From positions 2,208,001 through 2,272,000 of the forward strand of contig OZ245011.1 of the NCBI GenBank assembly GCA_965223665.1: 64,000 nt of DNA, in the 5' to 3' direction. Of the stretch, positions 24,902-58,783 are shown in pieces; position 1 is the stretch's first letter, and every line of letters begins with the position of its first letter. This DNA is from Nitrospinaceae bacterium (GTDB lineage Bacteria > Nitrospinota > Nitrospinia > Nitrospinales > Nitrospinaceae). The notes under the pieces were generated by a model that made no database searches, was not told the DNA's origin, and worked only from the letters and a program-made list of their open reading frames with translations. A program made the position numbers and the translations under genes.

Positions 24902-25284
24902 TCCTTTAAGCTTGCGGTACAGGCTTCCGTTAGTTCGAGAAGGGTTGTCTGCTCAATAATATTGGGTCGAAAGCGAACCAGGGTGGGGCCAGTGGGGTTT
25001 ACGCAGGCGTGCGAGTTTCCCCCGAGCAAACCCTCGCGAAAGACAACCAACAAGCCTACAACTTTTTCGAGATATCAGCTAGCCATAATGAAAGAACAAA
25101 ACAATAAATTAAAAATAAAAAGCAAATGCGTTCCCTCTTTTCTAAAGAGAGTTAGGGTGATTCACCTTCAGGGGTCTTCACTTATAAAAATAATTTATTC
25201 TTTCAGCAAGAATGATGACACGCGTTTTTTTAAGCGCAAATTTAATTTTTCTAAATTTTCAAAACAAAAAAATCATCTCTTTTT

Positions 25285-25582: not shown

Positions 25583-26713
25583 ATGCCGCAACATCAATTG
25601 AAACAGGATGTGGTACCATGGGGTCATCCAATGAACCACAAAGCTTGCCCTTATAACGATAAGGAGGGTGAGCCCATGAGAATGCGATTGAAAGGAAACC
25701 GCTGGTACGCGGCGTTCCGATGGAAAGGCCAATGGCGCGGCGATTCGCTGGAAGCGTTTGCACACCAAACGATGAAAGCCCAGATGAACCTCGGCCGCCT
25801 GATAGAAAGACTGGAGAGAGGAGACGACCCCAAAATCACCAAAAAGCCGATTGCCTCGGCTCAGAAATTGTACGCAGAGCAGATCCGGCATCGGTCCCAG
25901 TCCGTCAAGTTACGCAGCACATCGATTTTAAAACTGCACATCATTCCTTTTTTCGGTGAGACTCCGTTTGAAAAAGTCCCCCCCGACATGGTTGCCCACT
26001 ATAAGGAAAAACGGGAAGCCAGCGGCACCACGCAGAGTACGCTGCAAAAAGAGTTGCGCGTGCTGAAAGAAGTCATGCGCCTGGCAATAAAAGATTGGGA
26101 AATACCGACCGCCAGAGAAAGTGCGCGGATGGTTTTCAAGAATCCCGGAAAGACGCCGCAACAAGTCCTGCAGCTGGCGGATCTGAAGCACGCCGCACCG
26201 TGGGTGCCAAAGCAATCCGCAAGGTACGGAGAACAATATTTAAGAGCCTTCTGGTTTATGGCCTTCACCGGATTGGACGCGTCCGACGTATTGAAAATCA
26301 CCCCCGGGCATATCAAGAACGGATGGATAGAAGGCAAACGCGGAAAAAATAAGAAACCCTATTTCATTTATATCTCCCGATCATTACATGGGTTGATCGA
26401 GTCCATGCCCAGTCCACTGACCGAGGATCAGCCCTATCTGACCGGCATCAAAAGCAATCCCCTGTGCAAGGCGATCAAGCGAGCGTTTGTGAAAGCCGGG
26501 CTGGACTGGGCCAATACCAAAAGCCTGCGACACTTTTTTGCGTCGTACCTGCACAATGCCGGGTTGCCGAAGCAAGTCATCGCCGAAGCCGTGGGGCACG
26601 CCGAGAACTCGAAATGCACCCCGGTGTATTTACATTTATATAAAGATAACCTGAAGGCCGCATTTGAAGTCTTCGACCAGACCGTCGACCCCATGCTGCC
26701 ATTCGAAAAATGA
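25583..26713 (+). CDS. Tyrosine recombinase/integrase with atypical active-site motifs
   Basis: TLQKEL.VLK core-binding helix; FTGLD, KSLRHFFAS, VGHA, VY; true start may be ATG 25676 after AAGGAGG. Confidence 0.85.
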   Translation: MPQHQLKQDVVPWGHPMNHKACPYNDKEGEPMRMRLKGNRWYAAFRWKGQWRGDSLEAFAHQTMKAQMNLGRLIERLERGDDPKITKKPIASAQKLYAEQIRHRSQSVKLRSTSILKLHIIPFFGETPFEKVPPDMVAHYKEKREASGTTQSTLQKELRVLKEVMRLAIKDWEIPTARESARMVFKNPGKTPQQVLQLADLKHAAPWVPKQSARYGEQYLRAFWFMAFTGLDASDVLKITPGHIKNGWIEGKRGKNKKPYFIYISRSLHGLIESMPSPLTEDQPYLTGIKSNPLCKAIKRAFVKAGLDWANTKSLRHFFASYLHNAGLPKQVIAEAVGHAENSKCTPVYLHLYKDNLKAAFEVFDQTVDPMLPFEK

Positions 26714-26809: not shown

Positions 26810-27494
26810 GCTCCATCTCGTCGAAGATGAGACGGATGAAGGGTGGCCGGACAACGTCAGGATGGAACGAGGAAATGGGAAAAGAACTTCAATTTAATTC
26901 TAAGATTTACAAAATTTAAAAAATGTTCACTCTTTTAGAAAAAAAAGTAAGCGGAAAACGATGTGCTCCCTCTTTCCCAACCTGGCGGTTGGAGGCAAGA
27001 AAAATTTTCGAAAAGTTTCTGATGATTCTGTCATCTTAGAAATTTACCGAAAATGAATTTTACTGGCAGGCGTTGGCCTGCGGGCTGGGGGGATTGACCT
27101 CCAGGGTTTTTATAAAGTAAGAATGAAGAAAATCCTTCTAGCCGCGGTCCCCGACAGCTGTGGGATTCACATTCAAGAGAAGAAATTTTTATGGGAAAAG
27201 ACGATGCGCTCCTTCTTTTTAGAGAAAGCTCCATCTCATCGAAGAGGAGACTGGCGAAGCCGGGCCGGACACCGTCCGGATGGAGCGTTGAAAGTGGAAA
27301 TAAGAAGGGGACTTCAAACGGGTTGGACATTCCATTGAATCAAAAATTTAAAGAAGAGTTCTGGAAAACGGTATTTTTAAAAACCGCAACAAACAAATTA
27401 AAAAAAATTTGTCCGTTACCAACTTTTTAGGAAATGCTCCATCTTATCAAAGATAAGACAGGCGAAGCCCGGCCGGACAACATCCGGATGGAGT
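26810..27494 (+). repeat. Three dispersed copies of a 59-nt multi-hairpin element (26810-26868, 27228-27286, 27436-27494)
   Basis: GCTCCATC...GATGGAGC-type outer stem with internal hairpins; same length in all three copies. Confidence 0.85.
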
Positions 27495-28521: not shown

Positions 28522-29562
28522 CTAAAATGCCTCATTAAATGCTTGCTTCAAAGTGTCTTCATACACCCCCGGATACACCTCCGTAATCCTCGATCCGGGA
28601 GAATGCCCCAAGGCTTTTGCGATCCAATCCAAGCTGTATCCCGCATCCAACAACCGACTGGCCACATACCGCCTGAGGTCCTTCGCGGAATACTCTTTGT
28701 ACCCAATTTTTTCAAATGCCCGTTTCACTTGCTTGGCAAATAACCTGGCATCAAACCCGGGCAATATTTTTTGATCGGCTTTTAAAGGAAACGGAACCTT
28801 CTTCAATTTTTCCTGCAACCCCTTACACACCGGAACCTGAATCATCGGTTGGGATTTGTACCGACTGGATTTACTCCGAACCTTTTTGATCAATCCATCC
28901 TTGAAATGACCTTTCTCCAACTGCTCAATGTCTTTCGGTTCCATCCCGGTATAGGCCATGATCCAAAACCCGATTAAACTTTGCTCTTTCATGTGAGTGG
29001 CCGCCAGGGCAATCAGTTCCGGGGTTAACGGAGCTTTCTGAATGCTGCTCTTCTTTTGCACATAAGAATACCTGGGCAATTCCCATTTGGGCATCCCCCT
29101 ACAAATAACCGTCTTTAAAACTCTCAGTTCTTTATCTAAAGTAGATTTAACGCCAAAGGGTTTTCCGTCCTTTTGCCCCCACCGATGCACGATATAACTT
29201 TCAATCAATTCCCGGGTAATATCTTTCACATAATATTCCCCAAAGAACGGTTTGACATTAGTCTCCCAAATACTAATCCCCCGCGGATCTTTCTCCGGGT
29301 ATTTCATGGTTTTAAACTTTTTCCGGCTGGTGATGGGATCTTCACCCCGTTCCAACCGTTCCCGCAAAGCCCCCAGGTTTTTTAACGCTTTCCAGGGTTC
29401 TTTTTCGTAGGCATCTAAAGACACCTCAATCTTTCGACCCTTGAAACGGAAATTAGAGACCCACTTGCCGTCCTTAAGACGCATCATCATAGGCTCACCC
29501 CCACTATTTAAAAAAGGATGGGATGATTTTAACACAGACTGTTTTGGGTCTCTTAATTCCAT
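28522..29562 (-). CDS. Prophage tyrosine integrase with atypical active-site motifs
   Basis: STLDKELRVLK; YTGME, KDLRRYVAS, LGHS, ITEVY; adjacent to att; related to 25583..26713. Confidence 0.88.
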   Translation of the reverse strand: MELRDPKQSVLKSSHPFLNSGGEPMMMRLKDGKWVSNFRFKGRKIEVSLDAYEKEPWKALKNLGALRERLERGEDPITSRKKFKTMKYPEKDPRGISIWETNVKPFFGEYYVKDITRELIESYIVHRWGQKDGKPFGVKSTLDKELRVLKTVICRGMPKWELPRYSYVQKKSSIQKAPLTPELIALAATHMKEQSLIGFWIMAYTGMEPKDIEQLEKGHFKDGLIKKVRSKSSRYKSQPMIQVPVCKGLQEKLKKVPFPLKADQKILPGFDARLFAKQVKRAFEKIGYKEYSAKDLRRYVASRLLDAGYSLDWIAKALGHSPGSRITEVYPGVYEDTLKQAFNEAF

Positions 29563-32557: not shown

Positions 32558-33565
32558 ATGGAAAAGCACTCACCGATTCCTGTTTTTGTTTTTATCGCCT
32601 TCCTATTTATTCCAATTTCTAATGCTTATGCAGCTTGTAACAAACCAAGTGGCATACCGCAATTTGACTCAGACTCTTATTACCAATCAGCCATTGGTAA
32701 AACTGGCGATTCGTTAAAATCCGAGTTAAATAAAATTATTAAGAAGCATCATAGACATTCTTATAGTTGCGTGTGGAATATACTTAGAGAATCGGATGAA
32801 GATCCTGATAATCCAGACAATGTAATTCTTTTATACACAGGAAGAAGCCAGGACAAATCAAGAAGAGATCAAGGTGGGAATGATCAAAACGCTTGGAACA
32901 GAGAACATGTTTGGGCCAAATCTCATGGATTTAAAAGTAAAGGGCAACATGCCCATACAGATGCGCACCACTTAAGACCTACAGATAAATCTGTTAACGC
33001 GGATAGAGGTAACAAGGATTTTGCAAACGGTGGTTCTCCCAATAATGAATGTACTTTATGTAAATCCACTTCTACAACATGGGAACCTCCTGATGCTGTA
33101 AAAGGAGACGTTGCCCGAATGATGTTTTACATGGTAGTTAGATATGAAGGAGAGGATCAATCAAGCACACCGGATTTAGAGCTTGTTGAAAGGTCAACAT
33201 TTGTTGGTTCTCCACGTTTTGGAAAACTGTGTGATTTGTACGGGTGGCATAAACAAGATCAAGTGAGTGATTGGGAAAAGCAAAGGAATTCAGTGGTTTA
33301 TTCCTGGCAGGGTAATAGCAATCCGTTTATTGATCATCCAGAGTTTGCTCAGGCAATCTGGGGTGAAAAGTGTCATGACACAGGACCAGTTGAGCCACCA
33401 GTGGACCCTGAGCCTGATCCAGAGATTCCAGATCCTGAGGTTCCTCAACCTGTACCTGACCACCCCGAACCGGAGGAGCCAAATCCCATTGACAAAGAAA
33501 AATTGGATGGAATTATCAAATCTTTAGAAGAGATTCTTGAAGAAATCCGAAAATTGAGAGAATAA
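32558..33565 (+). CDS. Secreted endonuclease I family (His-Me finger) nuclease with a Pro-rich tail
   Basis: Signal peptide; WNREHVWAKSHG, TDAHHLRP, KGDVARMMFYM.VRY, QGN.NPFIDHP. Confidence 0.9.
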   Translation: MEKHSPIPVFVFIAFLFIPISNAYAACNKPSGIPQFDSDSYYQSAIGKTGDSLKSELNKIIKKHHRHSYSCVWNILRESDEDPDNPDNVILLYTGRSQDKSRRDQGGNDQNAWNREHVWAKSHGFKSKGQHAHTDAHHLRPTDKSVNADRGNKDFANGGSPNNECTLCKSTSTTWEPPDAVKGDVARMMFYMVVRYEGEDQSSTPDLELVERSTFVGSPRFGKLCDLYGWHKQDQVSDWEKQRNSVVYSWQGNSNPFIDHPEFAQAIWGEKCHDTGPVEPPVDPEPDPEIPDPEVPQPVPDHPEPEEPNPIDKEKLDGIIKSLEEILEEIRKLRE

Positions 33566-33567
33566 CT

Positions 33568-33756
33568 ATGGCCATCTTTGAACCCTACCGCTGCCACAAA
33601 TGCTTTGAGGAGATTACCTTGGTTCAACCTCAAGCTAAGGATGGTGAGCCCAAAGGAAAAGCAAAGGTTGAATGTATATTTTGTGGATGGAATCAGGAGT
33701 ATCAACTATATAACGGGCAAAAAAATGAGGAATTAATTAATGACAAAAAAGAGTAA
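33568..33756 (+). CDS. Small Zn-ribbon protein
   Basis: CHKC...CIFC; starts 2 nt after the upstream stop. Confidence 0.55.
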   Translation: MAIFEPYRCHKCFEEITLVQPQAKDGEPKGKAKVECIFCGWNQEYQLYNGQKNEELINDKKE

Positions 33757-33922
33757 CGGAGGCAACCGAGAGGAAGTTCCATTGGAAAAAATTGTGATTT
33801 CGAATATGTATAGTATAGAGGGAATAATCAATTTGCTGGTGAAGAAAGAGATAATCACAAAAGAAGAAGTGTTGAAGGAGATGGAACTGGTGGTGAAGGA
33901 GAAGAGAAATACTGAGTCCTAA
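33740..33922 (+). CDS. Small hypothetical protein
   Basis: GAGGA RBS; IINLLVKK.IITKEEVL. Confidence 0.6.
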   Translation: MTKKSNGGNREEVPLEKIVISNMYSIEGIINLLVKKEIITKEEVLKEMELVVKEKRNTES

Positions 33923-34216
33923 AAATGGTTTGAAGGTTATACATTCACTAACGGAGGGCTGCTTTCGACCCAAAGCGAACATTTCCCAGAGATCTGCTTA
34001 ATGATTTGGCAACAACCCATCCCTAAGTTATGGATCCACTCAAGCCGCAGTTTGATGAAGAAATCGGTCAAGCTTTCAGGGAAAATTAATATGCCAATTT
34101 TTTCTTGATTACTTATACCCATTGGAATAGGCTTGGGGAAAACCACGAATAAAAGATGTGGTGGCTATCGACCCAAAGCAGACATTAGGCCATTAACATG
34201 AGGTGGAAACGAAGGC

Positions 34217-35380
34217 ATGAAAGAAATTATTACTAAATCCACATCACGAGTGACGGCTCAAGTTTCCGATATTGCTCTTAGGGAGACTATTACTACACGC
34301 TTGATATTTCGTCCCATCATAATAGACAATCCCAATAATCGTGAAGCTTCTATAAAGGGTAATTTTCTATTTCAAAGAAAATCGAAAAACTCTCAATGGG
34401 AAGATTTTGAAACTACCCCTTTATCTAAGCTTAAAAGTGGGGAAGGTTTTAAGCTTGAACTTAAGTCTAGTGAATTACTTAAATTAGTAGATGAGATTAA
34501 ACCTTTATATGATCTCCATAAAAATGAAGGTGTTCCCAGAGGTCAAAAGAAATTCGTTCGCGCAACCCCACAACTTGAACAACTAGCATCTCTTACTGAT
34601 GATGATATTTCCAATTATTTAGATGCTAATACTACGATTGGTGCAACATTATTAACAAAACTATTAAATTGGGCTATAAACCTCGATGATCCAACCCCTC
34701 TAATCGAACGATTGGTTGAGCTTAATCCTAAATCTCTTGAAAAATTAAATGCTGCAGTGGGGCTGCAAAGTCTAAAAACTGCACTCGCTACTTGGCAGAA
34801 AAACGTGTGCAATTCAGATGAAGAATTTTGGCAGAAGACTTTAACAGAACATTCATTCGTACTAGAGCAAGCATTTTCATGGCCAACTTCAATTGTCAAA
34901 GGAAAGGCATATGTAAGTGGAAAGTCTGTATTTAACACAGGCGGTAATCTAGTAGATTTTTTGATGAAAAACAGCCTAACTCAAAGTGCTGCCCTTATTG
35001 AAATTAAAACACCTTCAACAAATTTAGTGGGACCTGAATATCGTACAGGAATTTACAATATATCAAGTGAGTTATCTGGCTCGATAATGCAAATTTTGAA
35101 TTATAAGCATTCATTGCAAGAAGACTTCACCATTTTAACAAAAGAGACACCTGATCTTTTCGATTCTTTTAATCCACAGTGTGTAGTAATAGTCGGTAAT
35201 ACTGGGAACGAACTAGATAATCAAAATAAGACGAAGTCATTCGAGCTATATCGCCATCAGTTCCAAAGTGTAACAATAATCTCATACGATGAATTGTTTC
35301 AAAAAATTAAAAACCTTATTAGATTACTGGAAAATCCTATTGAAAATGAAAGTTTTGACGAAGCTGAAATTCCTTTTTAA
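34217..35380 (+). CDS. sduA: Shedu anti-phage nuclease (DUF4263)
   Basis: EEFWQ..L, VDFL, LIEIKTP, ELSG.I.Q...YK, SFELYR, V.IISYDEL..K. Confidence 0.88.
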   Translation: MKEIITKSTSRVTAQVSDIALRETITTRLIFRPIIIDNPNNREASIKGNFLFQRKSKNSQWEDFETTPLSKLKSGEGFKLELKSSELLKLVDEIKPLYDLHKNEGVPRGQKKFVRATPQLEQLASLTDDDISNYLDANTTIGATLLTKLLNWAINLDDPTPLIERLVELNPKSLEKLNAAVGLQSLKTALATWQKNVCNSDEEFWQKTLTEHSFVLEQAFSWPTSIVKGKAYVSGKSVFNTGGNLVDFLMKNSLTQSAALIEIKTPSTNLVGPEYRTGIYNISSELSGSIMQILNYKHSLQEDFTILTKETPDLFDSFNPQCVVIVGNTGNELDNQNKTKSFELYRHQFQSVTIISYDELFQKIKNLIRLLENPIENESFDEAEIPF

Positions 35381-35530
35381 CATCCGCTTTTAGCCGACAG
35401 CGGTAGTTGGGCGTAATCTCTGTTGAAGGACAGATACCGACCCAAAGCGGGCATCCGTCTATATAATTATTCATGAATTTTTTTTGGAATTTTCAGGTTT
35501 TATTTCTTGAAAGAGGAGCCAAGGCGATTT

Positions 35531-36259
35531 ATGAGTGACGACAACAAAGAAGTTAAGAGCTCAAGCGGTTGTAACTGGTACGTTTTTGTTCCATCATTTT
35601 TATTCCTATTGTCGGGGACATTGTTTTTTGGGGTAAAAGAACAACCCGCAGAAATGGGTCTAGCTATTATCGCCGGAGCCATAGGAATGGCCTTTTCCAG
35701 CCTAGATAAATTTGAGTTTTTTAAAGGTGCCGGTTTCGAGGCAAAAACAAGGGAACTTCGGAAAGTCGTTACCGAGGGGAATGAAACTCTTGAAAGGCTT
35801 AGGACGGTTACACTTTTTTCGGCAGAATCAGTTTTGACGCAAGTCATAGCAATGGGCAGATGGGGGGTGGATCTAAGACTAAGAAATGAAACCAAAGCCA
35901 AGGTGGACAGAATTTTAAAGATTATAAATGCCAATCCAGATGAAATCGCCGAAGTTGAAAAGTATTGGAGGAAATACACAATCTGTGATTACATCTTCCA
36001 TATTTTAGGAGGAAGCACAGTACCGGACGGGTTTGATGGAGACGAAACAAAGGAATGGCAGGAGCTTAGGAGGGGTCTTATAGATAACCCACCCAGCCCT
36101 AAAAAATTACGAGACTTTCTAACGAAGTACGGCATGCTCGACACGGAGAGAGAAGGTTTGATAAAGGATTACGAATATTATCTGGAAAACTCTATCCACA
36201 GGGATGAAGAAGCATGGGAAAACCGAGTTGACAAGAGATTGGTTAAAAACTCTTCCTGA
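35531..36259 (+). CDS. Hypothetical protein with two N-terminal TM helices
   Basis: F..FKGAGFEA motif after the TM segments; ATG 35531 follows AAGG. Confidence 0.75.
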   Translation: MSDDNKEVKSSSGCNWYVFVPSFLFLLSGTLFFGVKEQPAEMGLAIIAGAIGMAFSSLDKFEFFKGAGFEAKTRELRKVVTEGNETLERLRTVTLFSAESVLTQVIAMGRWGVDLRLRNETKAKVDRILKIINANPDEIAEVEKYWRKYTICDYIFHILGGSTVPDGFDGDETKEWQELRRGLIDNPPSPKKLRDFLTKYGMLDTEREGLIKDYEYYLENSIHRDEEAWENRVDKRLVKNSS

Positions 36260-36405
36260 ATTATTTTCTTAAACGTCCGCTTTTGGCCCAAGGTTGAAGC
36301 GCAAGGCCAAAAAAAAAACAAACTCCCTATTCTCTCCTGGCAAAGTTTCAGATTGCACTTCCACCTATCTTGTGCCAAAATGTCAAAAATATTCCCAGAT
36401 GAGGA

Positions 36406-37701
36406 ATGATGGCAAAAAATCAAAATCAGACAGAATTTGCAAAGCTTCTTAAAAACACAGGGTTTTCCAAGGTAGAGCTTGCCGAACGCATCGGATACAA
36501 CGTCAGAACTATTTACCGGTGGGAGAAAGGAGAAACCCGCCCGAGAAAAGCCATCCTGGATCTTGTCCGTGAAGTAGCAGCTTCTTCCGGAAAAATTCGC
36601 AATCGTTCTCCCAAGGAGTTTGGTTTTAATTTCATTGATCTTTTCGCCGGTATAGGTGGACTCCGGGCAGGGTTTGAAAAAATTGGCGGGAAATGCGTTT
36701 TCACCAGTGAATGGAATGAGCCCTGTCTCCATACCTATCGGGCCAACTTCTCTTGTGATCATGAAATTGAGGGAGATATCACAAAGGTTCCTGAGCACAA
36801 GGTTCCACCTCATGATGTTTTACTGGCGGGTTTTCCCTGCCAGCCTTTTTCCATTGCGGGAGTTTCAAAGAAAAATGCCCTTGGCAGACCACACGGTTTT
36901 TTGTGTGACGCGCAGGGGACCCTGTTTTTTGATGTCGCCCGAATCATTGCGCACCACAAGCCCGCTGTCTTTCTCCTTGAGAATGTAAAAAACCTGATAA
37001 GCCATGACAAGGGAAATACCTTTCGTGTGATCAGGAAAACCCTGGAAGAGGAACTTGGTTATCATATTGACTGGCGGGTAATAAATGCCAAACCCTTTGT
37101 CCCCCAGAACAGGGAAAGAATTTTTATTGCCGGTTTCAGGGAAAATACAAGGTTTGATTTTAATGATCTGGTTTTACCCCCCGAAGAAAACTGGCCTTCT
37201 ATGGTTTCCGTTCTCCATCCGGAAGACGGCTCAGAGCCGGATGAACCACCCTATACCATTGGATCGAGGGGAAAGGTTAATCCCAAATACACCCTTTCTG
37301 AAAAATTATGGACCTATCTTCAAAACTATGCCCAAAAGCATCGCGAAAAAGGCAATGGTTTCGGGTTCGGTCTGGTTGGTAAAAACGACGTAGCCCGAAC
37401 ACTGTCAGCCAGATACTACAAGGATGGTTCTGAAGTTCTGGTACGTCAACGCGGAAGAAGGCCACGCCGCCTGACCCCCCGCGAGTGTGCCCGTCTTATG
37501 GGATTTGATCAGCCAGGGAAACCTCTCTTCCGGATCCCTGTTTCTGATACACAAGCCTATAAACAGTTTGGCAATGCAGTTGTGGTTCCGGTTGTCGAGG
37601 CCGTTGCCGGGTTTATGCTTCCTCATATCCAGCAGGTGATTCATGGAAATTCAAGGCAACAAAAACTTTTTTCTGAAGAGATGCTGTTAGAAGCCGTTTG
37701 A
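36406..37701 (+). CDS. dcm: DNA cytosine-C5 methyltransferase (Dcm/M.EcoRII-like) with N-terminal HTH
   Basis: [53 protein letters not shown]. Confidence 0.93.
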
Positions 37702-37705
37702 AGCT

Positions 37706-38176
37706 ATGGCTGACATTGTATCCCCCGAAACCCGCAGTCGCATGATGTCCGGAATAAAGGGAAAGGATACTCGCCCTGAACTTTTGATCAGAAAAGGACT
37801 TCATGCCAAAGGACACAGATACCGTCTTCATGTAAAAAGTCTTTCCGGCAAACCTGATCTGGTTTTTCCGAAATACAGGGCTGTTATTCTGGTTCATGGT
37901 TGTTTCTGGCATGGCCATAACTGCCATCTTTTTAAATGGCCATCCACAAGGAAGGATTTCTGGCGTCAAAAGATCACTGGAAATCAGAAAAATGATTCCA
38001 AAAACCTTGCAGCCCTGAAAGAAGATAACTGGAGAGTTATGACCATATGGGAATGTGCCCTCAAGGGCCGCGAACGAATTCCCCTGAATGAAATAATCGA
38101 TAAGGCAGCTGAGTGGCTGTTATCAAACAGGCTCGCAATGGAAATCAGGGGAAGAAAAAAAAGAGATCGGGAATGA
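37706..38176 (+). CDS. vsr: Very short patch repair endonuclease
   Basis: RSRMMSGIKGKDTRPE, GKPD, VHGCFWHGH, IWECAL. Confidence 0.95.
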   Translation: MADIVSPETRSRMMSGIKGKDTRPELLIRKGLHAKGHRYRLHVKSLSGKPDLVFPKYRAVILVHGCFWHGHNCHLFKWPSTRKDFWRQKITGNQKNDSKNLAALKEDNWRVMTIWECALKGRERIPLNEIIDKAAEWLLSNRLAMEIRGRKKRDRE

Positions 38177-39390
38177 AAAAAGGTTTTCTGTCCGAATATT
38201 TTGAAGGCGTTGCTGCCAAACGATTGAGTGTCGTTGAAGTTGACCCTGCCAGCTCAAACCAGCATGAATTTAATGGAGTGAAAGCCCTGAAACAACTTCT
38301 CGGACCTGAAAGGTTAAATGATATTCCTGTCCGTTTTGTCTGGCTTGGTGAAGAAAACGAAGGTTTGTCTGAAGATTCCCATGTGACCTGGTATGATTCG
38401 CGGGAAAACCATCCGACAAGATCAGAATACCGCCTTTACTTCAAGTCCAACCCGGTCATGGAAATGGCCCGTGAAGGTGATTTGCTGGTTGTTGCCAAAA
38501 GACCTGGTGGTGAACTGATGATAATTATTGCGAGTCAGGGGACTACTATAGAAAACCAGTTGATATGGCTTTTCGGAGTTTCCGTCCAGATAGGGACAGG
38601 TTTTGAGTTTCGGGAGTTGGATGAGCAACAGGATATGGAAGTTGATTTTGCTGTCCGCTTTATTCTGGAAGAACTCGGAATTGAAATTGAGGAACCGGAA
38701 GCCGACCTGTTTGACAGGTTGCTTGAACCTTTTCAGGGCATGTTCCCCAAGACTGCCGAATTTTCTGCCTTTGCAAGAAAAACCCTCTCTGATGTTTCAC
38801 CCATGGATGACCCGGACGCGGCCCTGATAGCCTGGATAGAAAGAGAGGAAAAACTTTTCAGGAGACTGGAACGACACATTGTTTCTGACCGTTTAAAGGA
38901 AGGATTTGCCGGGCCCGAGGGTGCGGATGTAGATGGCTTTATCAGTTTTTCGCTTAGTGTCCAGAATCGCCGAAAATCAAGAATGGGATACTCTCTGGAA
39001 CACCATCTTGAAGAAATATTTTGTTTGCGGGGTATCCGGTATGACAGGAATAAAGTAACTGAAAACAATTCCAAACCGGATTTTTTGTTTCCAGGACAAA
39101 CAGAATATAGGGACCAAAACTTTTCTTCCCTGAAACTTTCCATGCTGGGTGTAAAATCAACCTGCAAGGATCGATGGCGACAGGTTCTTTCCGAGGCCGC
39201 CAGAATACCGGACAAACATCTGCTTACACTGGAACCCGGTATTAGTGAGAACCAGACAAAAGAAATGATGTCCAACCGGCTTCAGCTTGTCATTCCAACC
39301 GGTCTTCATGAGACCTATCAACCTGCCCAGAAGGAATGGCTTATGAATGTAACAGAATTTATCCAACTGGTTCAGGAGCGTCAGGAATGA
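38173..39390 (+). CDS. Type II restriction endonuclease, EcoRII-like
   Basis: SNQHEF, NRRKSR.G.SLEHHL, KPDFLFP, KSTCKDRWRQ; ATGA overlap with vsr. Confidence 0.9.
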   Translation: MKKGFLSEYFEGVAAKRLSVVEVDPASSNQHEFNGVKALKQLLGPERLNDIPVRFVWLGEENEGLSEDSHVTWYDSRENHPTRSEYRLYFKSNPVMEMAREGDLLVVAKRPGGELMIIIASQGTTIENQLIWLFGVSVQIGTGFEFRELDEQQDMEVDFAVRFILEELGIEIEEPEADLFDRLLEPFQGMFPKTAEFSAFARKTLSDVSPMDDPDAALIAWIEREEKLFRRLERHIVSDRLKEGFAGPEGADVDGFISFSLSVQNRRKSRMGYSLEHHLEEIFCLRGIRYDRNKVTENNSKPDFLFPGQTEYRDQNFSSLKLSMLGVKSTCKDRWRQVLSEAARIPDKHLLTLEPGISENQTKEMMSNRLQLVIPTGLHETYQPAQKEWLMNVTEFIQLVQERQE

Positions 39391-44372: not shown

Positions 44373-45731
44373 TCAAGGTGTGTGAACAATTTGATTTCCT
44401 GATTTCCAGTTCGCGGATCCATCCCATGTTTCCAACCGGCCGTCGCTGGTGTTGTAAATAGTTAATCCCCCAAATGGCGCTCCATTAGGCCAAAGAAAAT
44501 CCCGTTCCCCCGAAGTCCAACCTATAGGCTTAAACCAATGGCTGGTCCAAATCGACATATCATCGCAAAAGTAATCGTTTTTACTGGACTCCCAGGTGTA
44601 ACCATAAATTTCTGTTCCACGCCCATCGATCCAGGCGTTCCGCGTATTATCTTCATTGGGGCAAGCAAAAAACCGGTTTTGCTCATTACCGAATTGAGTA
44701 TTGACCGGCGGTGTACGCGTGATATAAATTCCGGTGGGCGTGGCTAAAGGAAAGGTACCAAACTGTATGTTGTCCGCAGTGCAATGAACAAAGGTGTTGG
44801 TGTCGCCGCCCTCGATATGATATGCCACGTTTTCGTGCTGAACCTGGCATTGAATGAACAGGTTACTGTTAACAATCGAAGCCCCACTGATTTTATCTGC
44901 CAGGTAAATCCCCCGGCGGCCGCGTCGAATAACAATATGTAAAAACGTATTCCAATAATGCTGTCCGTGATCTGATTGATTTATTCCATCCCATCCACCA
45001 AACATCACAATGCCATCACTGCAACGTTCCATTTTAATGTTGTGGTAAAACCCGTAAGAATACCGAGCGACCTGGGTTGGACTGTTGACATGGTCGGGAC
45101 AGATCGCCAAGCCAATCACGTGGTCGGTCGTGTTGGTGTTGGGAATCTCACCATTGATGGAAAACCCTCCAACTTCGGCATAAGCGAGTTCGCATCGGAC
45201 GGTAAACATTGCATTGGCGGTGTTACTTCTTACCGGAATTAAATGGGTGAGTCCTGGACCGGCTCCTAATAATTGAACCCGCGGCTCGGTGCTAGTAATC
45301 GTGTTTCTATAATCGGGAATATGGATCCCGTTTTCCAGCGTCTTCCCTTCCCAGATTTCGGTGGCCGTGGGAAGTCCAACGATTTTATATTTTCCGGGTG
45401 GCATGTAAACTTTACCGCCCTTGGGATCCGCCACGGCCGCGTCGATCGCCGCTTGAATGGCGCCACGGTCATCGGCGACACCATCCCCCACGGCGCCATA
45501 ATCCATCACATTGTAGATATGGGCAAACGGTGAGATCGCATTGATCCGGAGTTCATTGGTGAGAACCTCAATATTGATATTAGTTCCGGCCAATAACGAT
45601 TTAAGGTACATGATGAGGCCGGATTTATGCGAATACCAGCCATGACCGGTCCCCAGATTATCCAGGTCGTTAACCTCACCTCCACCCGGACCCGCCGCTA
45701 CGGATCCCCCATTTCCTACCCAATAAGTCAT
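44373..45731 (-). CDS. Tail spike / depolymerase with pectate-lyase-3-like beta helix
   Basis: YNVMDYGAVGDGVADDRGAIQAAIDAA...GGKVY.PPG.Y. Confidence 0.85.
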   Translation of the reverse strand: MTYWVGNGGSVAAGPGGGEVNDLDNLGTGHGWYSHKSGLIMYLKSLLAGTNINIEVLTNELRINAISPFAHIYNVMDYGAVGDGVADDRGAIQAAIDAAVADPKGGKVYMPPGKYKIVGLPTATEIWEGKTLENGIHIPDYRNTITSTEPRVQLLGAGPGLTHLIPVRSNTANAMFTVRCELAYAEVGGFSINGEIPNTNTTDHVIGLAICPDHVNSPTQVARYSYGFYHNIKMERCSDGIVMFGGWDGINQSDHGQHYWNTFLHIVIRRGRRGIYLADKISGASIVNSNLFIQCQVQHENVAYHIEGGDTNTFVHCTADNIQFGTFPLATPTGIYITRTPPVNTQFGNEQNRFFACPNEDNTRNAWIDGRGTEIYGYTWESSKNDYFCDDMSIWTSHWFKPIGWTSGERDFLWPNGAPFGGLTIYNTSDGRLETWDGSANWKSGNQIVHTP

Positions 45732-46040
45732 TTATCGCTCGATGATTTGAAAATAAATTGTACGTTCTGCTTTTTGGCCGTTATCTGTAACAATTTGACA
45801 GGTCAATCCGTGTGTATTATTTAACGTTCCGTCTTTTACGCGAACGGTAACAATTCCATTCGCCTGAGACTCTTGAACTTTGGTGATCCCGCCGGCCTCT
45901 GGTGTAAGCGTAAAATCAAGAATCGATTCCTCTTCCTCCAACCAATCATTCCAATCGATGCTGTAATCCAATTCTTCATCTTTATCTTTAAAAATGGTCG
46001 GGCCGCGGGTTTTATCTTCAAAAAAACTTGTTGTGCTCAT
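45732..46040 (-). CDS. Phage fibre/spike adaptor-like protein
   Basis: KD.DE.LDYSIDW..WL...TCQIVT..G...ERT. Confidence 0.75.
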   Translation of the reverse strand: MSTTSFFEDKTRGPTIFKDKDEELDYSIDWNDWLEEEESILDFTLTPEAGGITKVQESQANGIVTVRVKDGTLNNTHGLTCQIVTDNGQKAERTIYFQIIER

Positions 46041-48460
46041 TGATTCACCTCAACTTTATAAACACGATTTTCATATGGGATCGTATATTTCCGGATCTCT
46101 TCAGGGACCGCATAAGTGCGAAGTGGATCCACATCCAAAATCCAAACCAATAGAGTATTTGGATCTATACCCAAGGCACTAGCAGCTGCAGCCGACGGAG
46201 TTAAAGTGATCGGCCCTAAAAAATAATTCGGATCCAAACTTGTGACGCGAGTTCCGGCCGCTACGGGTTGAATAAAAATTCCGCCGGAAAATACTGAGGG
46301 ATCCACAACCAGTGATTTAGAAACGGCCGGTCCCGGTGAGAGGGTGATCCCTCCTAACTCAATAACAGGATCTTGGCCGATGCTTATAACGTTGGCTGGA
46401 TTGGGTGAAACCGTCAGACCGCCCAGAATTAGATTTCCATCCAAAGCATTGACGATGGCGGCCGCGGATCCCGGATTGAGTACTAATCCCCCTAACACCG
46501 TTCCAGGATCCACGGCCAAGGCTCGCAGCCCGGAAACATTACCACTAATTGTGATACTACCCAAAATAACCACCGCTTCGGTGGCGAATACTTTTGCGAT
46601 CGCAGGATTGGGTGAAATACGAATACTTGTATCCACATTGGGATCGATTACCAAGGCCCGGGAAGCTGCAGTGGTTGAAATGATGGTGATCCCACCCAGC
46701 ACCACACCCGGATCTAAACCCAAAGCCACGGCCGCCGCGGTTCCACCGGTTAAAGTAATTCCGCCTGACTCCACTGTGGGGTTCAGTGCGGCAGCAATAA
46801 CCGACGCGATCGATGGGTTGACCAGGATTCCACCCAGCACTACACCCGGATCCACGCCCTCAGTGCTGACAGCTGCTATTTCACCACTTATTGTGATTCC
46901 ACCTAAAATACTATTCGGATCTAAACCGAGTGCGCGGGCTGCGGCCGGATCCGGATTTAAAACTAAACTTGTGTCCACATTGGGATCGATGACTAATGCC
47001 CGGGCCGCTGCAGTTCCGCCGTTTAAAGTAATCCCACCTAACTGAACTGTGGGATTTAATGCGGTGGCGATGGCGGACGTGATCGACGGGTTGACCAGGA
47101 TTTCCCCAATCACCACTTGCGGATCCACACCCAACGCCTTGGCAGCTGCTATTTCTCCACTAATTGTGATTCCGCCTAAAATAATATTCGGATCAAAACT
47201 GAGTGTGCGGGCTGCGGCTAAGGTGGGCGTTAAGGTAATCCCTCCTAACTGGACTGAGGGATCCATCACTAAGGACCGAGCGGAGGCCGTGTTAGGAATA
47301 ATGGTGATTCCACTCAACACAGTGTTGGGATCCACCACAGCGGCTTTGGCCGATGCCGGTCCGGGTGTGACCGTGACACCGCTGGAAGGCTCCACCACCA
47401 AATAGGCGACCATGTTTTCGATTCTAAGATCCGCCGGACCCACAACTTTTCCACCCATTTGGAAAAACTGGGAAAGTGTCGGCACCACGTTGGCCGCTTC
47501 AGAAACTTTCATCAAAATGGTATTGGTGGCGTTGACGGTGACCACATCTTCCGTGAGCGTGTCCACATTGTTTCCGTAGATTATCGAATAAGTTGTGGAT
47601 CCACCGGTTCCTGCAGAAAAATCACCAATGATTTTACAACCCAGAACGTTGGTTCCACTTGCGTTGGAATCGCCACTCGGTCCTGACCGGGTACCACTAT
47701 TGGTGATCATTTCACCGGATCTCGGATCGCCTGTGTATTCTCCACGGTTACCGGCGCCAGTGGTGAATGGCGCCTGGGAAACTTTGCCCCAATCGCCCAC
47801 GTCAAAGGCGTCGCCCTGATCCTGGGTGCCACCATCGGTTTTTTGGTACATCAAGACATCAACGTCCCCCGCCGGTCCGTCGGTGATGTCTGTGGCATCG
47901 CTGTACCACAACCATTTTGAAAACCTTTGTGTTTTACCACCTCCAGAGGTTTTGAGTTCCAAATAATCGACGGTATTATTTCCGGTTTTGAAATCACAGG
48001 CTACGACGTTTGACACCTCGGTGCCATCGACTTCCATTTTAAAGGCGCCGCTGTTGGCATTTTGGAAGTAAATTTTTAATCGGTGTTTTTGCCCCAACGT
48101 GAACGGGTTGGTGATGGTATCTTTAACCGCTGCTTTAGAATCGATGACCTGGACATCACCGGTGGACTGAATGACACGCAATTCTAAAATTAAATTTCCG
48201 CCGGTATCAATGATATTGATGATATCGGAATCGCCAGTGTGGCCGGTATTGACCCGGGTGTAATAACCAATCACCACATGATTGTCCCCCGCCTTGGCGA
48301 CGGCATCAAAAATCAAAAACCGGGCACGGTCCCCTTGTTCACACACCAATTCGTAATCGCTGCCAATTAAAGAAACGACGGGTGTATTCGTGATCCCGTT
48401 GGTGACATCGGTTAAGTCCTGCGTTAAGAAAGCAAAGATCTGATTTAGGGTGAAAGCCAT
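46037..48460 (-). CDS. Virion fibre-like protein: lectin-like N-terminus and ~25-aa repeats
   Basis: Many DP...LGGIT.....A.A.A repeats in the C-terminal half. Confidence 0.8.
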   Translation of the reverse strand: MAFTLNQIFAFLTQDLTDVTNGITNTPVVSLIGSDYELVCEQGDRARFLIFDAVAKAGDNHVVIGYYTRVNTGHTGDSDIINIIDTGGNLILELRVIQSTGDVQVIDSKAAVKDTITNPFTLGQKHRLKIYFQNANSGAFKMEVDGTEVSNVVACDFKTGNNTVDYLELKTSGGGKTQRFSKWLWYSDATDITDGPAGDVDVLMYQKTDGGTQDQGDAFDVGDWGKVSQAPFTTGAGNRGEYTGDPRSGEMITNSGTRSGPSGDSNASGTNVLGCKIIGDFSAGTGGSTTYSIIYGNNVDTLTEDVVTVNATNTILMKVSEAANVVPTLSQFFQMGGKVVGPADLRIENMVAYLVVEPSSGVTVTPGPASAKAAVVDPNTVLSGITIIPNTASARSLVMDPSVQLGGITLTPTLAAARTLSFDPNIILGGITISGEIAAAKALGVDPQVVIGEILVNPSITSAIATALNPTVQLGGITLNGGTAAARALVIDPNVDTSLVLNPDPAAARALGLDPNSILGGITISGEIAAVSTEGVDPGVVLGGILVNPSIASVIAAALNPTVESGGITLTGGTAAAVALGLDPGVVLGGITIISTTAASRALVIDPNVDTSIRISPNPAIAKVFATEAVVILGSITISGNVSGLRALAVDPGTVLGGLVLNPGSAAAIVNALDGNLILGGLTVSPNPANVISIGQDPVIELGGITLSPGPAVSKSLVVDPSVFSGGIFIQPVAAGTRVTSLDPNYFLGPITLTPSAAAASALGIDPNTLLVWILDVDPLRTYAVPEEIRKYTIPYENRVYKVEVNQ

Positions 48461-48774
48461 TAGTCTTTTATGGGGTTGATGTCAATATCGAAATCATTTC
48501 TTTCGGTGTTCCAGGTCACGGTGACGGTATCGGAGCGGAAAACTATTTTGTCCCCCTCGTAAAACTCTTTTAGCTTTTTAGGATCCGAAGTTTTTCGCGG
48601 GTCTCCCTCTTTGATTTGGCTAATGTCTATTTTGTAATCGATGATAGCCTGCAACCCGATTTGTAATGCCGCGGCCTTTTCGGCGTTGTTTCTTCCGGGC
48701 AATAGGGAATAGTCGATGGACTGGCCATCGACCATAATTCCTTCTTTAGTTCTTTCAATCTTGCGGACTGGCAT
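48460..48774 (-). CDS. Hypothetical phage protein
   Basis: TAATG overlap within the tail operon. Confidence 0.75.
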   Translation of the reverse strand: MPVRKIERTKEGIMVDGQSIDYSLLPGRNNAEKAAALQIGLQAIIDYKIDISQIKEGDPRKTSDPKKLKEFYEGDKIVFRSDTVTVTWNTERNDFDIDINPIKD

Positions 48775-48780
48775 TTAGAA

Positions 48781-49236
48781 CTACTCGGTTAACCGTAGTT
48801 CACAATCCTGCAGAGTGAGTGGTTGCCCATCACTGACAATACGGTTTGAGCCAAGATCAAACCAGGCCAGGATTTCCCGGTTTGCCACCGTCACATTATC
48901 GTCTGTCAAAACTGCATAACGAGCACCATTCCCACTTGCAGGTAAATTTCCCCCGGAAGCCGTCCACACTAAATCCTTAATTTGTATTGATGACAAATCA
49001 CCTGTGTCATCTTCATTGATGACATCAAAATCAGTGGCGTTTTTAGCTAATTGAATTCCACCCGAAAGATAACCGTTACCTGCGGGAATTTCTCCCAGGT
49101 CACTCAGGACGTTAGAATCCGGACCTGGCGCCACCGAATCATCTACTAAAGCCATGTAATAATTTGCCGGGGCGGCCACCCCGCGAAATTTCTCCTCTAA
49201 CATTTTGAATTTTCCTCGATTGGTTACTCCACCCAT
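48781..49236 (-). CDS. Phage tail fibre-associated protein
   Basis: AGGAGG RBS; EI..GNGY..GG..L...WTASGG motif. Confidence 0.75.
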   Translation of the reverse strand: MGGVTNRGKFKMLEEKFRGVAAPANYYMALVDDSVAPGPDSNVLSDLGEIPAGNGYLSGGIQLAKNATDFDVINEDDTGDLSSIQIKDLVWTASGGNLPASGNGARYAVLTDDNVTVANREILAWFDLGSNRIVSDGQPLTLQDCELRLTE

Positions 49237-49248
49237 AGTAATACCTCC

Positions 49249-50517
49249 TTATTGAGAGTTTTTGAGTTTTGCTTTAAAACAACTCACCCCGGCGGGCGCA
49301 CCACGGGTAAGTTCCTGGTTATCTAATTCCACATAGTTTTCATGAAACAATTCCAAAGTGTTTTCCCCATCTCTTTGCATTTGCCCCAGCTGCCGGACAA
49401 AGTCTGAAACCGGATCCACAAGCACCACCGTTTTTCCGGTGAGGTCGTTATTCATGAACGGATGTGGGATTAAGTTCATATCTGCATTTTTGATGGAATG
49501 ATTGATTTCCACCCAATCAAACTTTTCATCCTTTGCCAACAATCCCCCATTGACCAGGCGATCAAGCAATAGAGGTGCGTTCTTGGTTTCTTCCAATGTG
49601 GGTTTGTTCTCATACTGTTTAATAAATTTCTTTTTGGTGATTGGATCGATTCGGTCCGGACGGATTTTTGTCGGGCCATTGTTGGCCCACGGTGGTTCCG
49701 GAGCGTGGTACATGGCTTCGATCTTTCCCGATCCGTTTTCGACCAGGGCAAATAAAAACCCATGCACGTCGCCATCGTTTTGACTTAATTGATAAGGTGG
49801 GGACGCTTGAATGTAACGCTGTTGAGCATCGGCCGTACCTACTGTGCCGCCCTGATAATCAATATACATATTGATCAAGGTCGTATAAGTCGATGGCAAA
49901 ATTGCTAGAGAACCACTCAATTTTGCATTCACCGGTTGAGTGTTAATACTGTGTTTAATTTGCGGATAAAATCCATATTCTCCACCGGGCAGGGTTAAAT
50001 TAACACCCGGCAACCCCAGAAACCCGGTTGATACTTCACCGATGGCCGTTTTTAAAGAGTTTTGATTTACGCTATCCGCCGGTGGAATGAGATCGTCCCA
50101 CACCGGGGTTTGATTGGGACCCGCGCTTTTTAAAATTTGCCCAGCCACACCGGCACCTAAATCGATGGGAACTCCATTGAGATCGTAAACTAAAACACCA
50201 CCCCCCGTTCCATGCGCGATTTTTGCTAACGTGACCGCATCATCCAGGATCAAAACGGTGGTAATGATTCCATTTTGATTCGGTAATAGATTTAAATAAT
50301 CCGCATCAAGAGTCCCAACTTTATTCCAAGCGGTATTCGCTCCATTACGTTTCCAGAGTTCATTGACGTTTCTATTTCGCCACCACATACCCGGATAAGC
50401 CGGGTTGGGCTCATCTGTCCCATCAAACATTGTCACCAAGGCGTCGTTGATATCATTATTTTGCTGACGGAAAAGTGCCCGGGAAATATTTTGAATAAAC
50501 ATGTTTGGCGTGGTCAT
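49249..50517 (-). CDS. Tail fibre protein
   Basis: DINDAL...F.G..EP...YPGMWW attachment motif; follows the tail tip gene. Confidence 0.8.
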   Translation of the reverse strand: MTTPNMFIQNISRALFRQQNNDINDALVTMFDGTDEPNPAYPGMWWRNRNVNELWKRNGANTAWNKVGTLDADYLNLLPNQNGIITTVLILDDAVTLAKIAHGTGGGVLVYDLNGVPIDLGAGVAGQILKSAGPNQTPVWDDLIPPADSVNQNSLKTAIGEVSTGFLGLPGVNLTLPGGEYGFYPQIKHSINTQPVNAKLSGSLAILPSTYTTLINMYIDYQGGTVGTADAQQRYIQASPPYQLSQNDGDVHGFLFALVENGSGKIEAMYHAPEPPWANNGPTKIRPDRIDPITKKKFIKQYENKPTLEETKNAPLLLDRLVNGGLLAKDEKFDWVEINHSIKNADMNLIPHPFMNNDLTGKTVVLVDPVSDFVRQLGQMQRDGENTLELFHENYVELDNQELTRGAPAGVSCFKAKLKNSQ

Positions 50518-54182: not shown

Positions 54183-54660
54183 CTAGTAACCTTTCATGGC
54201 GGTAAAAATTAACGATCCGGTTTTTAAACAAGCGTTGATGATAATTGGCAATACTGGAATCGATTCCTGATTCCGTATGAATCAGAAACCCTGGCGCAAG
54301 GATCAAACCAACGTGCATGTCAGCTGCCATCCACTTGCCTTCCACTTTGTAATACCCTTTCATAAAGGCCACATCCCCCAGGCGCTCTTTACCGTATGGG
54401 ATCAAGTTCCATTCCGGATTGTGCAAACAGTTGTCGGTCAATGTGGCTTGAACTTCTTTTCCGGATTTAGCCGATTCGTAGGTGGTTAAATAATCGGGAA
54501 GTTCGAGTCCAAATTGCTCTTTCCAAATCAACCGACACAGGCCGTAACAGTCGCAGCCGTCGCGACCGCGGCCACGCTCTTTAAATGGGATACCGATATA
54601 TTGTTCTACCCAATCAGAATATACCGACCCGGTTTTCCATCCATAAAGTTCCATAATCAA
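54163..54660 (-). CDS. NlpC/P60 tail assembly protein (K-like)
   Basis: YIGIPF...GR...GCDCYGL...HVGL...FLIH. Confidence 0.9.
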   Translation of the reverse strand: MIMELYGWKTGSVYSDWVEQYIGIPFKERGRGRDGCDCYGLCRLIWKEQFGLELPDYLTTYESAKSGKEVQATLTDNCLHNPEWNLIPYGKERLGDVAFMKGYYKVEGKWMAADMHVGLILAPGFLIHTESGIDSSIANYHQRLFKNRIVNFYRHERLLDGSLSA

Positions 54661-55133
54661 AACAGCGCGGGAAACCCACTTGGCACAAACGCATGGGGCG
54701 GGAACGGTTTGGATTCCAAATGCTCCACCGATAATTCACCCGTAACCACCAATTGGTTGTAATCCGCTTCCTTCAATTTAAAATCCGGTAAAGACATTTC
54801 GACCGTATCCGGTGTGCTGGCCAAAACGATTTCGATCAACACGTCCACCGCCGAGGTGATACTGCGCAAGGCCTGGACGATTTGTCGATCGACGTTTCCG
54901 ATCGTGAGCGTGGCCACCGGCGGCCGGTCTTCACTTTCGTTGGGTAATGGCAATTCAAACGGGAAGGCCTGGAACGTGTTCCCGTTGGAAACCAGGTTCA
55001 CCTTGTCATCACAAACGCGAATCGGTTCGGCCAAATCGGCATGTGAAAGAGTGAGCAAGGTAATAAACGCCTCTTTGGTTTCCTGGGCCGTGACGGCCTT
55101 CATTGCATTGGTTGAAAAACTTCTTCCCGTCAT
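54657..55133 (-). CDS. DUF1833-like minor tail protein
   Basis: LLTLSH...PIR...F.AFPF...LP...L.I.NV...PD.VE. Confidence 0.85.
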   Translation of the reverse strand: MTGRSFSTNAMKAVTAQETKEAFITLLTLSHADLAEPIRVCDDKVNLVSNGNTFQAFPFELPLPNESEDRPPVATLTIGNVDRQIVQALRSITSAVDVLIEIVLASTPDTVEMSLPDFKLKEADYNQLVVTGELSVEHLESKPFPPHAFVPSGFPALF

Positions 55134-55480: not shown

Positions 55481-55483
55481 GAC

Positions 55484-57682: not shown

Positions 57683-57683
57683 A

Positions 57684-58770: not shown

Positions 58771-58783
58771 TTTGGTTTCCTTT

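Follow-up and report, generated by a model that had tools for sequence, protein, structure and literature searches.

Conserved paired sites bracket exchangeable accessory genes, including a Shedu nuclease gene, in Nitrospinota and some Proteobacteria

A 64,000-nucleotide stretch of the chromosome of a Nitrospinaceae bacterium (contig OZ245011.1, positions 2,208,001 to 2,272,000; the whole stretch is called the window, its own genome G000 and the chromosome C1) carries a gene for a Shedu (SduA) nuclease, followed by a gene for a 250-amino-acid protein. Each of the two genes is preceded by a short site, L, and followed by a second site, R, and our analysis of these sites showed that they belong to a conserved family, that the genes between L and R have been replaced at a fixed chromosomal locus in related genomes, and that the junctions fall in the spacer and inner arm of the sites. 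We propose that the cassettes are exchanged by conservative recombination within the spacers, between like sites, through an enzyme acting in trans, much as described for the dif modules of Acinetobacter, and we give this reading about an even chance; the chemistry and the enzyme that it calls for are a matter of inference.

The original prediction, made from the letters of the window alone, listed three left and two right sites, and direct reading of the sequence finds all five of them in place. With the two cargo genes they are arranged as follows.

33954..33983, + strand: L1, with a degenerate outer arm at 33954-33965, spacer CGACCC at 33966-33971 and inner arm AAAGCGAACATT at 33972-33983
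34157..34186, + strand: L2, with a degenerate outer arm at 34157-34168, spacer CGACCC at 34169-34174 and inner arm AAAGCAGACATT at 34175-34186
34217..35380, + strand: Shedu (SduA) nuclease, first cargo, 387 amino acids (Pfam, PADLOC)
35379..35408, + strand: R1, with inner arm AACATCCGCTTT at 35379-35390, spacer TAGCCG at 35391-35396 and outer arm ACAGCGGTAGTT at 35397-35408
35426..35455, + strand: L3, with a degenerate outer arm at 35426-35437, spacer CGACCC at 35438-35443 and inner arm AAAGCGGGCATC at 35444-35455
35507..36259, + strand: second cargo, 250-amino-acid protein with hydrophobic N-terminal segments (open reading frame)
36272..36301, + strand: R2, with inner arm AACGTCCGCTTT at 36272-36283, variant spacer TGGCCC at 36284-36289 and a degenerate outer arm at 36290-36301

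All five are exact pattern matches, with position weight matrix scores of 40.1 (L1, where 33961-33983 reads GCTTTCGACCCAAAGCGAACATT), 33.2 (L2), 24.1 (R1), 31.8 (L3) and 27.2 (R2). L2 lies 30 nt ahead of the Shedu ATG at 34217; R1, which folds into a 5-bp hairpin, overlaps the Shedu TAA stop codon at 35378-35380 and forms, together with L3, the junction of the two cassettes; R2 begins 12 nt past the stop of the open reading frame at 35507-36259. A pattern search of the window allowing up to 3 mismatches gave these three L and two R sites as exact matches and a sixth match, with 3 mismatches at 7858, that is at chance level. A weight matrix trained solely on the sites of other genomes likewise recovered only L1-L3, R1 and R2, in agreement with the original remark that they were seen nowhere else in the window. 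Over the whole 4.35-Mb genome the same approach gave 24 L-scoring and 38 R-scoring matches (1 and 2 in the reversed genome), which represent 33 distinct positions clustered at 1.46-1.56 Mb of the chromosome, in the window, at 3.03 Mb, and on two small contigs, C2 and C4.

An L site reads, in order, outer arm, CGACCC and the gene-proximal inner arm AAAGCGGACRTT, and an R site reads AAYGTCCGCTTT, TGGCCG and outer arm. Copies from relatives and from Proteobacteria give the full forms, AATGTCCGCTTT, CGACCC and AAAGCGGACATT for L, and AATGTCCGCTTT, TGGCCG and A(T/A)AGCGGACATT for R. A complete site has two mutually inverted arms of 11-12 bp around an asymmetric 6-bp spacer, an 11-6-11 palindromic layout; full 28-bp copies stand in inverse orientation around the module at L047, L076 and G060, and the site profiles agree. 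The end of L and the reverse complement of the end of R are alike at 16/18 positions, so that their description as approximate inverted copies stands. The accompanying statement that they lack attC or dif structure holds for dif sequence, which is absent, but not for dif-like architecture, since the 11-6-11 layout is present in complete copies. Spacer and inner arm are nearly invariant; the outer arm is perfect in many Proteobacteria and degenerate in most Nitrospinota, the window included.

Where cassettes form an array, each R is succeeded by the L of the following cassette. The arrays of G060 run from L through cargo, R-L junction and further cargo to a final R, and at 7/7 junctions the offset is 26 nt and the outer arms overlap; the offset at the R-L junction in the window is 47 nt. 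In genus g2 the inverted repeat reaches ~50 nt, and its copies at different loci of genome G002 are nearly identical. In a set of 27 arrays from outside Nitrospinota, the outer arms of one array compensate each other at 29/96 non-consensus positions; shuffling within groups gives 17.8 +/- 3.3, and 8/5000 shuffles reach 29. Outer arm and adjacent inner arm show no such compensation (10 against 8.1). The mutual compensation of the outer arms suggests that they are two halves of one palindrome.

The original prediction also took several sites to be small imperfect hairpins. That idea is only partly right. Strong folding (-11.1 kcal/mol, z -5.1, in a copy from Lysobacter) is confined to full copies elsewhere; single sites of the window fold poorly (-0.9 and -2.5 kcal/mol, not exceeding shuffles), and because their outer arms are degenerate its L sites fold no better than shuffled sequence. 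The folding of full copies could point to purely regulatory or structural hairpins of terminator, mRNA-stabilizing or REP (repetitive extragenic palindrome)-like type, unrelated to mobility. The positions of the sites would suit such a role, with L a median of 70 nt before the first open reading frame and R a median of 49 nt after the last stop, and a module with promoter-like hexamers precedes some L sites. Nevertheless, no Rfam family reaches its gathering score in the window (33700-36500 gives three weak, unrelated matches with E up to 5), and a promoter/terminator consensus scan of 33500-36600 returned 11 promoter-like and 2 terminator-like elements, none of them at L1-L3, R1, R2 or the module upstream of L2; R1 and R2 do not resemble terminators. 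The G000 positions number just 33 and cluster in islands, prophage and small contigs, the genome has no RAYT gene, and regulation leaves unexplained both the junctions at the sites and the exchange of cargo, so that we regard a purely regulatory role as very improbable. REP/REPIN elements with RAYT, and IS200/IS605 elements, were ruled out as well: the Y1 (HUH) transposase/RAYT family PF01797 has 0 matches in G000, where the 33 positions cluster in three chromosomal regions and two small contigs.

Exchange of cargo is seen at one chromosomal locus defined by the same two core genes. Five genomes (G002, G017, G015, G006 and G016) keep L and R there with their outer extensions, and in a sixth (G012) both sites are degenerate. 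The six genomes hold six unrelated cargos, homology between the loci extending no further than the inner edges of L and R. These cargos are a PrsW protease (G002), a methyltransferase with a CDP-alcohol phosphatidyltransferase, a formate/nitrite transporter with a nitrite/sulfite reductase, a 6.7-kb transporter set, SelO and a KefB-like exchanger; the locus is empty in 0/6 genomes. The same cargo is also found at different places. A 503-nt cassette of G002 and its counterpart on another contig of G006 are 91% identical (463/509 columns), with homology that begins at ATCGACCC and ends at TTTGGCCG and with outer arms that differ. The window's Shedu gene matches a 3725-nt contig from an independent public run, X5, at ~95% identity, and the match starts precisely with the first L2 spacer base, 34169. 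Two genera also carry KefB-like cargo, 80% identical, at loci that are not homologous. On sediment metagenome contigs of run X6 only the 18-nt site is common, the flanks being unrelated on both sides. Finally, an orthologous R site of G002 and G009 shares spacer and outer arm and differs in the inner arm, placing the junction where inner arm and spacer meet, and the two Shedu genes of G000 (in the window and on contig C2) have only 26% protein identity, yet their flanking module, L and R are common.

Judged from these alignments, homology between copies of the same cargo ends exactly at the outer spacer edges, and the swapped cargo, the recurrence of one cargo elsewhere and the orthologous R site together assign the exchange to the spacer and inner arm. 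The sites had been predicted to be cassette boundaries, and variation of cargo among related genomes with junctions at the sites, along with identical cargo elsewhere, is what was found.

Homology that stops exactly at the outer spacer edges would also be produced by a non-autonomous transposon in which cargo with 18-bp terminal inverted repeats enters the centre of a palindromic target by means of a transposase supplied in trans. Mobile insertion cassettes, in which passenger genes lie between inverted repeats of insertion sequence (IS) type and are mobilised in trans, are the known case, and they resemble the elements described here in having one or a few passenger genes between inverted terminal repeats and no transposase inside. 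The inner parts of L and R are indeed inverted copies of each other (16/18), the outer arms compensate like the halves of a split palindrome, and the ~50-nt inverted repeat of genus g2, with near-identical copies at different G002 loci, fits insertion. On the other hand, we saw by eye no consistent target-site duplication; the dinucleotides beside the spacers differ within pairs, and the flanks form a palindrome with the element ends, unlike those of mobile insertion cassettes. No cognate IS with these ends was found, and among 605 open reading frames in 72 neighbourhoods there was no recurring transposase family: no gene family occurs in more than 9/72, and the most frequent is a histidine kinase. 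IS110-type transposases are present in only 1/5 site-rich genomes and absent from the other four, Y1 transposases are absent from G000, and the search for empty palindromic targets gave a single candidate, in G000, and nothing at the loci scanned. A transposon would also have had to insert independently at the same locus in each of six genomes, which is less economical than exchange, and we consider a transposon origin distinctly unlikely.

The candidate in G000, at C1:1514415 (L227, ~3415), is a lone palindrome with covarying arms, GTCCAC...GTGGAC, around the spacer CGACCG, whose left half is that of the L spacer and whose right half is that of the R spacer. An unoccupied or scarred docking site is a possible interpretation; the locus has no counterpart in the sister genome, G001. 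A comparison of empty sites in genus g17 met with flanks that are too diverged.

The sites are far more widespread than the window. A 15-mer of L is present in 27/41 related genomes, with 58 matches where its reversed control gives 6, and the L 18-mer, with at most 1 mismatch, occurs in 57/120 Nitrospinota genomes and in none with the reversed control. Carriers of the 18-mer all belong to families f1-f4 of one order (16/20, 36/70, 3/6 and 1/5 genomes), with 0/18 genomes positive in other Nitrospinota families. In a scan of 185,579 genomes, one per species, exact L sites mark at least 119 loci, and among the matches listed 60/121 scored exact hits have a complementary outer arm (at least 7/10 pairs), where a binomial estimate puts the chance expectation at ~5 of 121. 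The matches listed outside Nitrospinota come from Xanthomonadales, several alphaproteobacterial genera and gammaproteobacterial metagenome-assembled genomes, and full sites are present in strains of Lysobacter, Dyella, Kiloniella and Marinimicrobium; metagenome-assembled genomes of Nitrospinaceae and Nitrospina are among the matches too. One metagenome-assembled genome has an array of small same-strand open reading frames with sites between them. In a phage collection the exact L 18-mer was found in only 2 viral contigs, at contig ends in both. Scanning genomes with site profiles, which the original prediction had put forward as a check, thus reveals a widespread site family that is non-random and conserved.

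Arrays of this kind invite comparison with integrons, and in particular with integrase-less integron cassettes (CALIN), in which the R-L junction would be an attC site served by an IntI in trans. As in those systems, the cassettes are mostly single, promoter-poor open reading frames arrayed on one strand, with imperfect palindromes of 40-80 nt, variable at the centre, between them, and the cargo is very diverse and includes defence genes, which are on record for integron cassettes as well (bioRxiv 10.1101/2024.07.02.601686). Unlike integron cassettes, however, a lone cassette has one 28-30-bp site before it and another after it; insertion in an integron places the whole attC at one end. Sequence is conserved here, and not structure alone: the supposed unpaired spacer is fully paired and conserved, and the AAC/GTT triplets of attC are in the minority, with C in 17% at the AAY of R (n=56) and G in 19% at the RTT of L (n=198, a profile that includes chance hits). 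No IntI scores above the curated cut-off of TIGR02249 in G000, in any of 41 relatives (0/41) or in any of 5 other carriers (0/5); in G000 the highest score is 82.8 bits, where 265 is required, and one other carrier has an N-terminal fragment. The integron reading was therefore rejected, for want of IntI, for its minority of attC triplets and for sites on both sides; we assign it hardly any probability, and the label "non-integron" given to the cassettes by the original prediction stands.

A close parallel is with the dif modules of Acinetobacter plasmids (pdif, XerC/XerD), for which exchange is described (PMC13141974) as conservative recombination between like sites. According to the same account, small accessory modules lie there between inversely oriented 11-6-11 sites, the module-proximal arm travels with the module, and the module encodes no recombinase. 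The two systems differ in several respects. The arms described here are unrelated to the host's dif candidate and present one sequence in two inverted copies, where dif pairs an XerC half with a different XerD half; the spacers come in two fixed types, L and R; neighbouring cassettes meet at two sites or at a composite, whereas dif modules share one; and the sites reside on chromosomes, in prophage and on small contigs of Nitrospinota and Proteobacteria, not on Acinetobacter plasmids.

Conservative exchange is favoured because the 11-6-11 layout, the two fixed spacers, the travelling inner arms and docking loci that are never empty are all accounted for together. According to this model, the Shedu gene and the 250-amino-acid gene would be two exchangeable cassettes stacked in a prophage accessory region, each spanning from an L spacer (CGACCC with AAAGCGGACRTT) to an R spacer (AAYGTCCGCTTT with TGGCCG), and the layout of a complete site would be that of the core site of a conservative site-specific recombinase. 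Strand exchange would take place inside the spacers, L with L and R with R, the differing spacers preventing recombination of L with R; the inner arm would move with the cargo and the outer arm would remain at the locus. With exchange confined to like sites, a double exchange would swap the cargo at a fixed docking locus, and a single exchange could add or remove a cassette with its R-L junction and so build arrays.

A number of observations weigh against this model, and the first of them concern the enzyme. None for these sites was found in our searches of G000 and the carriers compared. The tyrosine recombinases near arrays belong to different families, and the complete genome G024, which has an array, encodes only two tyrosine recombinases, both XerC/XerD-like. 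That family is the only one of tyrosine recombinases common to all six genomes compared, which allows for Xer action on the sites. A canonical-looking dif candidate, AGTTCCCATAACATATATTATGTTAACT, occupies C1:720379-720406, close to where the cumulative GC skew peaks (670 kb; the minimum at 2.92 Mb marks the likely origin), and by eye it matches the L arm at 5/11 and 3/11 positions, which is no resemblance. This weighs against XerCD acting at dif-type arms; a dedicated neighbouring recombinase was rejected, given integrases of different families near arrays and no recurring family; serine recombinases are absent from G000. The original prediction had looked to a co-occurring recombinase, and none stands consistently beside the cassettes. 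Any enzyme must for that reason act in trans, in agreement with the same prediction; its further claim, that this enzyme is a recombinase, is an inference.

Other difficulties lie in the sites and their junctions. With degenerate outer arms in the window and most Nitrospinota, half of the canonical core site is weak, and in Nitrospinota the compensation between outer arms is weak as well (36/142 against 30.0, reached by 390/5000 shuffles, in rows that include orthologous copies). The hybrid site predicted for exchange at the centre of the spacer, TGGCCC with a perfect arm, has 0 exact matches and ten one-mismatch variants in 120 genomes. Junctions exactly at the sites, the outcome anticipated by the original prediction, are found at the fixed locus, in the 503-nt cassette and at the left edge of the X5 match, but that match ends before R1, and in X4, from a second sample of the same study, the strain-level junction is inside Shedu, at 35067. 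The X4 contig is identical to the window over 35067-39136, and the 580 nt upstream are unlike it, so that the N-terminal two-thirds of Shedu there apparently belong to a different allele; X4 also has a variant near 35350. A 2.7-kb insertion that distinguishes G000 from G001 has its end 55 nt away from a site, and a 12-13-nt direct repeat borders it on both sides. This insertion (L154 2389-5132; C1:1554389-1557132) adjoins a tRNA gene, has the repeat GCGGAATA.AAAT and carries TPR and HEAT-repeat genes. Homologs without sites had been named as a possible refutation; the small pair of open reading frames upstream of L1 is present without sites in G001, and three other genomes contain the PrsW cargo of G002 with no L or R nearby. 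Lastly, the loci studied were seeded with L-site matches, and the counts are not unbiased.

Several of these points would sit well with recombination over short homologies, in which L and R are no more than standard connectors, 18-30 nt long, for homologous recombination or single-strand annealing by phage or host. Such a process requires no dedicated enzyme, and none was found; the cassettes of the window lie within a prophage; the X4 junction inside Shedu is what ordinary homologous exchange would give; and junctions that can be resolved only to an invariant 18 nt fit homology as well as a cut site. Yet 18 nt is short for RecA-type exchange, and the near-invariance of the 18-mer across four Nitrospinota families and Proteobacteria, the 11-6-11 palindrome, the two fixed spacer types and the compensation of outer arms are left unexplained. 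A precedent is provided by the promoter-early stem-loops (PeSLs) of T4-type phages, described by Arbiol et al. 2010 (PMC2839356), through which genes are reported to be shuffled by homology; like L and R, they are short conserved elements that flank non-essential genes in plastic phage regions and mediate modular shuffling. PeSLs, as described there, are strong promoters and terminators, whereas the sites reported here score as neither in the consensus scan and share the architecture of a core site, and their conservation extends across phyla. On balance we think short homology unlikely as the explanation, and continue to favour conservative exchange between like sites.

The contents of the cassettes were surveyed in 45 L-to-R cassettes of Nitrospinota, with open reading frames called by a simple rule at loci seeded with L matches. 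The median cargo is 1192 nt. One open reading frame is present in 30/45 and more in the remaining 15/45, so the view of the cassettes as one-gene units holds for most and fails for a third; cargo is co-oriented from L to R in 36/45 and on the opposite strand in 9/45. Besides Shedu, cargo in G000 includes the second Shedu on contig C2, a TIR protein, DUF4238, a PIF1-like helicase, a trypsin-like protease, an MvaI/BcnI nuclease, SUI1, ankyrin and a cation exchanger. Nitrite/sulfite reductase, transporters, SelO and PrsW protease stand alongside defence genes as cargo, and the system is therefore not defence-specific, contrary to the link suggested at the outset. Repeats accompany some of this cargo: one of ~65 nt (TGTATCAGCGTCACGC...GAGGGCCAT), present in numerous copies in genus g2, lies on both sides of the PrsW gene in G002 (L020 5306-5370 and 7083-7130) and G016 (L166 1855-1920 and 4320-4390), and a head-to-tail repeat of ~57 nt occupies L020 7270-7600, in or beside a 147-amino-acid open reading frame of the G002 cargo.

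Three further features of the window complete its description.

33984..34090, + strand: 3' gene remnant abutting the inner edge of L1 (homology to contig C5)
34091..34156, + strand: conserved module ahead of L2 (also upstream of L at C1:3031607-3031707 and twice on contig C2)
28522..29562, - strand: prophage/island integrase (Pfam Phage_integrase), at the left edge of the strain-specific region; context, outside the cassettes

The short remnant after L1 had been noticed originally, and it proved to be the last ~100 nt of a gene whose full copy is a long open reading frame on contig C5, with 84% identity and homology that begins directly after the L1 inner edge. The module ahead of L2 reads, by eye, TTGATT-17-TAGGCT; the promoter scan did not flag it. 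Shedu is assigned by SduA_N (PF21407, 1.8e-40, 137.7 bits), the DUF4263-type SduA_C (PF14082, 2.2e-26, 93.4 bits) and PADLOC SduA (2.6e-130, 433.1 bits). The second cargo matched no Pfam and no PADLOC family, and the Atlas clusters closest to it are hypothetical proteins without names. The 120 Nitrospinota genomes contain no close DNA relatives of the two cassettes.

Synteny with G001 ends near 28.4 kb and is not resumed by 64 kb. The strain-specific region runs from the integrase through a helix-turn-helix (HTH) protein, an AbiJ-like protein, endonuclease I, Shedu, the 250-amino-acid gene, Dcm-Vsr-EcoRII and two TPR proteins to phage tail, capsid-protease and portal genes at 50-63 kb on the other strand. 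Directly past the cassettes, 36406-39390 encodes a complete Dcm methylase with an N-terminal HTH, Vsr and an EcoRII-type endonuclease, and the minus strand of 44373-63847 encodes tail proteins, a tape-measure-like protein, a capsid with prohead protease and a lambda-type portal. Integrase, defence genes and phage structural genes within one strain-specific region place the cassettes in a prophage accessory region, the setting originally proposed. At its edge, 25583-26713 and 28522-29562 encode divergent tyrosine recombinases on opposite strands, 34% identical, the first common to G001 and the second at the synteny break. A ~170-nt repeat at 26935-27115, with dozens of copies in G001 (72-90% identity), is probably a miniature mobile element, and a shorter repeat (45-90 nt) at 25104-25194 also has many copies in G001.

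Literature searches with motif strings and on non-integron cassettes, mobile insertion cassettes and Nitrospina islands returned no description of these sites; the motif strings led only to unrelated papers, and the main text of a Xanthomonas integron paper, its supplements apart, does not contain the motif. Gene cassettes bounded by sites are a known kind of element, and L and R would be a variant of it for which we found no published description. Tentatively, and with more doubt than confidence, we suggest that they represent a third general bacterial cassette system beside integrons and Xer/dif, with heterospecific 28-bp palindromic docking sites and an as yet unrecognised recombinase. Such a system would be common to Nitrospinota and several classes of Proteobacteria, and would point to a recombinase whose 28-bp target is compact and well defined and whose two spacers are naturally orthogonal, a property exploited in engineered cassette exchange.

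On the exchange reading, the sites would provide a sequence handle for accessory and defence genes of unknown function, such as the 250-amino-acid neighbour of Shedu, and make the acquisition of single genes by integron-less genomes testable. If the third-system proposal is true, defence and niche genes, including those for nitrite assimilation in nitrite oxidisers, would move among chromosomes, prophages and plasmids. A large part of small-scale gene flux in globally important marine nitrite oxidisers, and in some Proteobacteria, would then run through a defined and searchable site pair.

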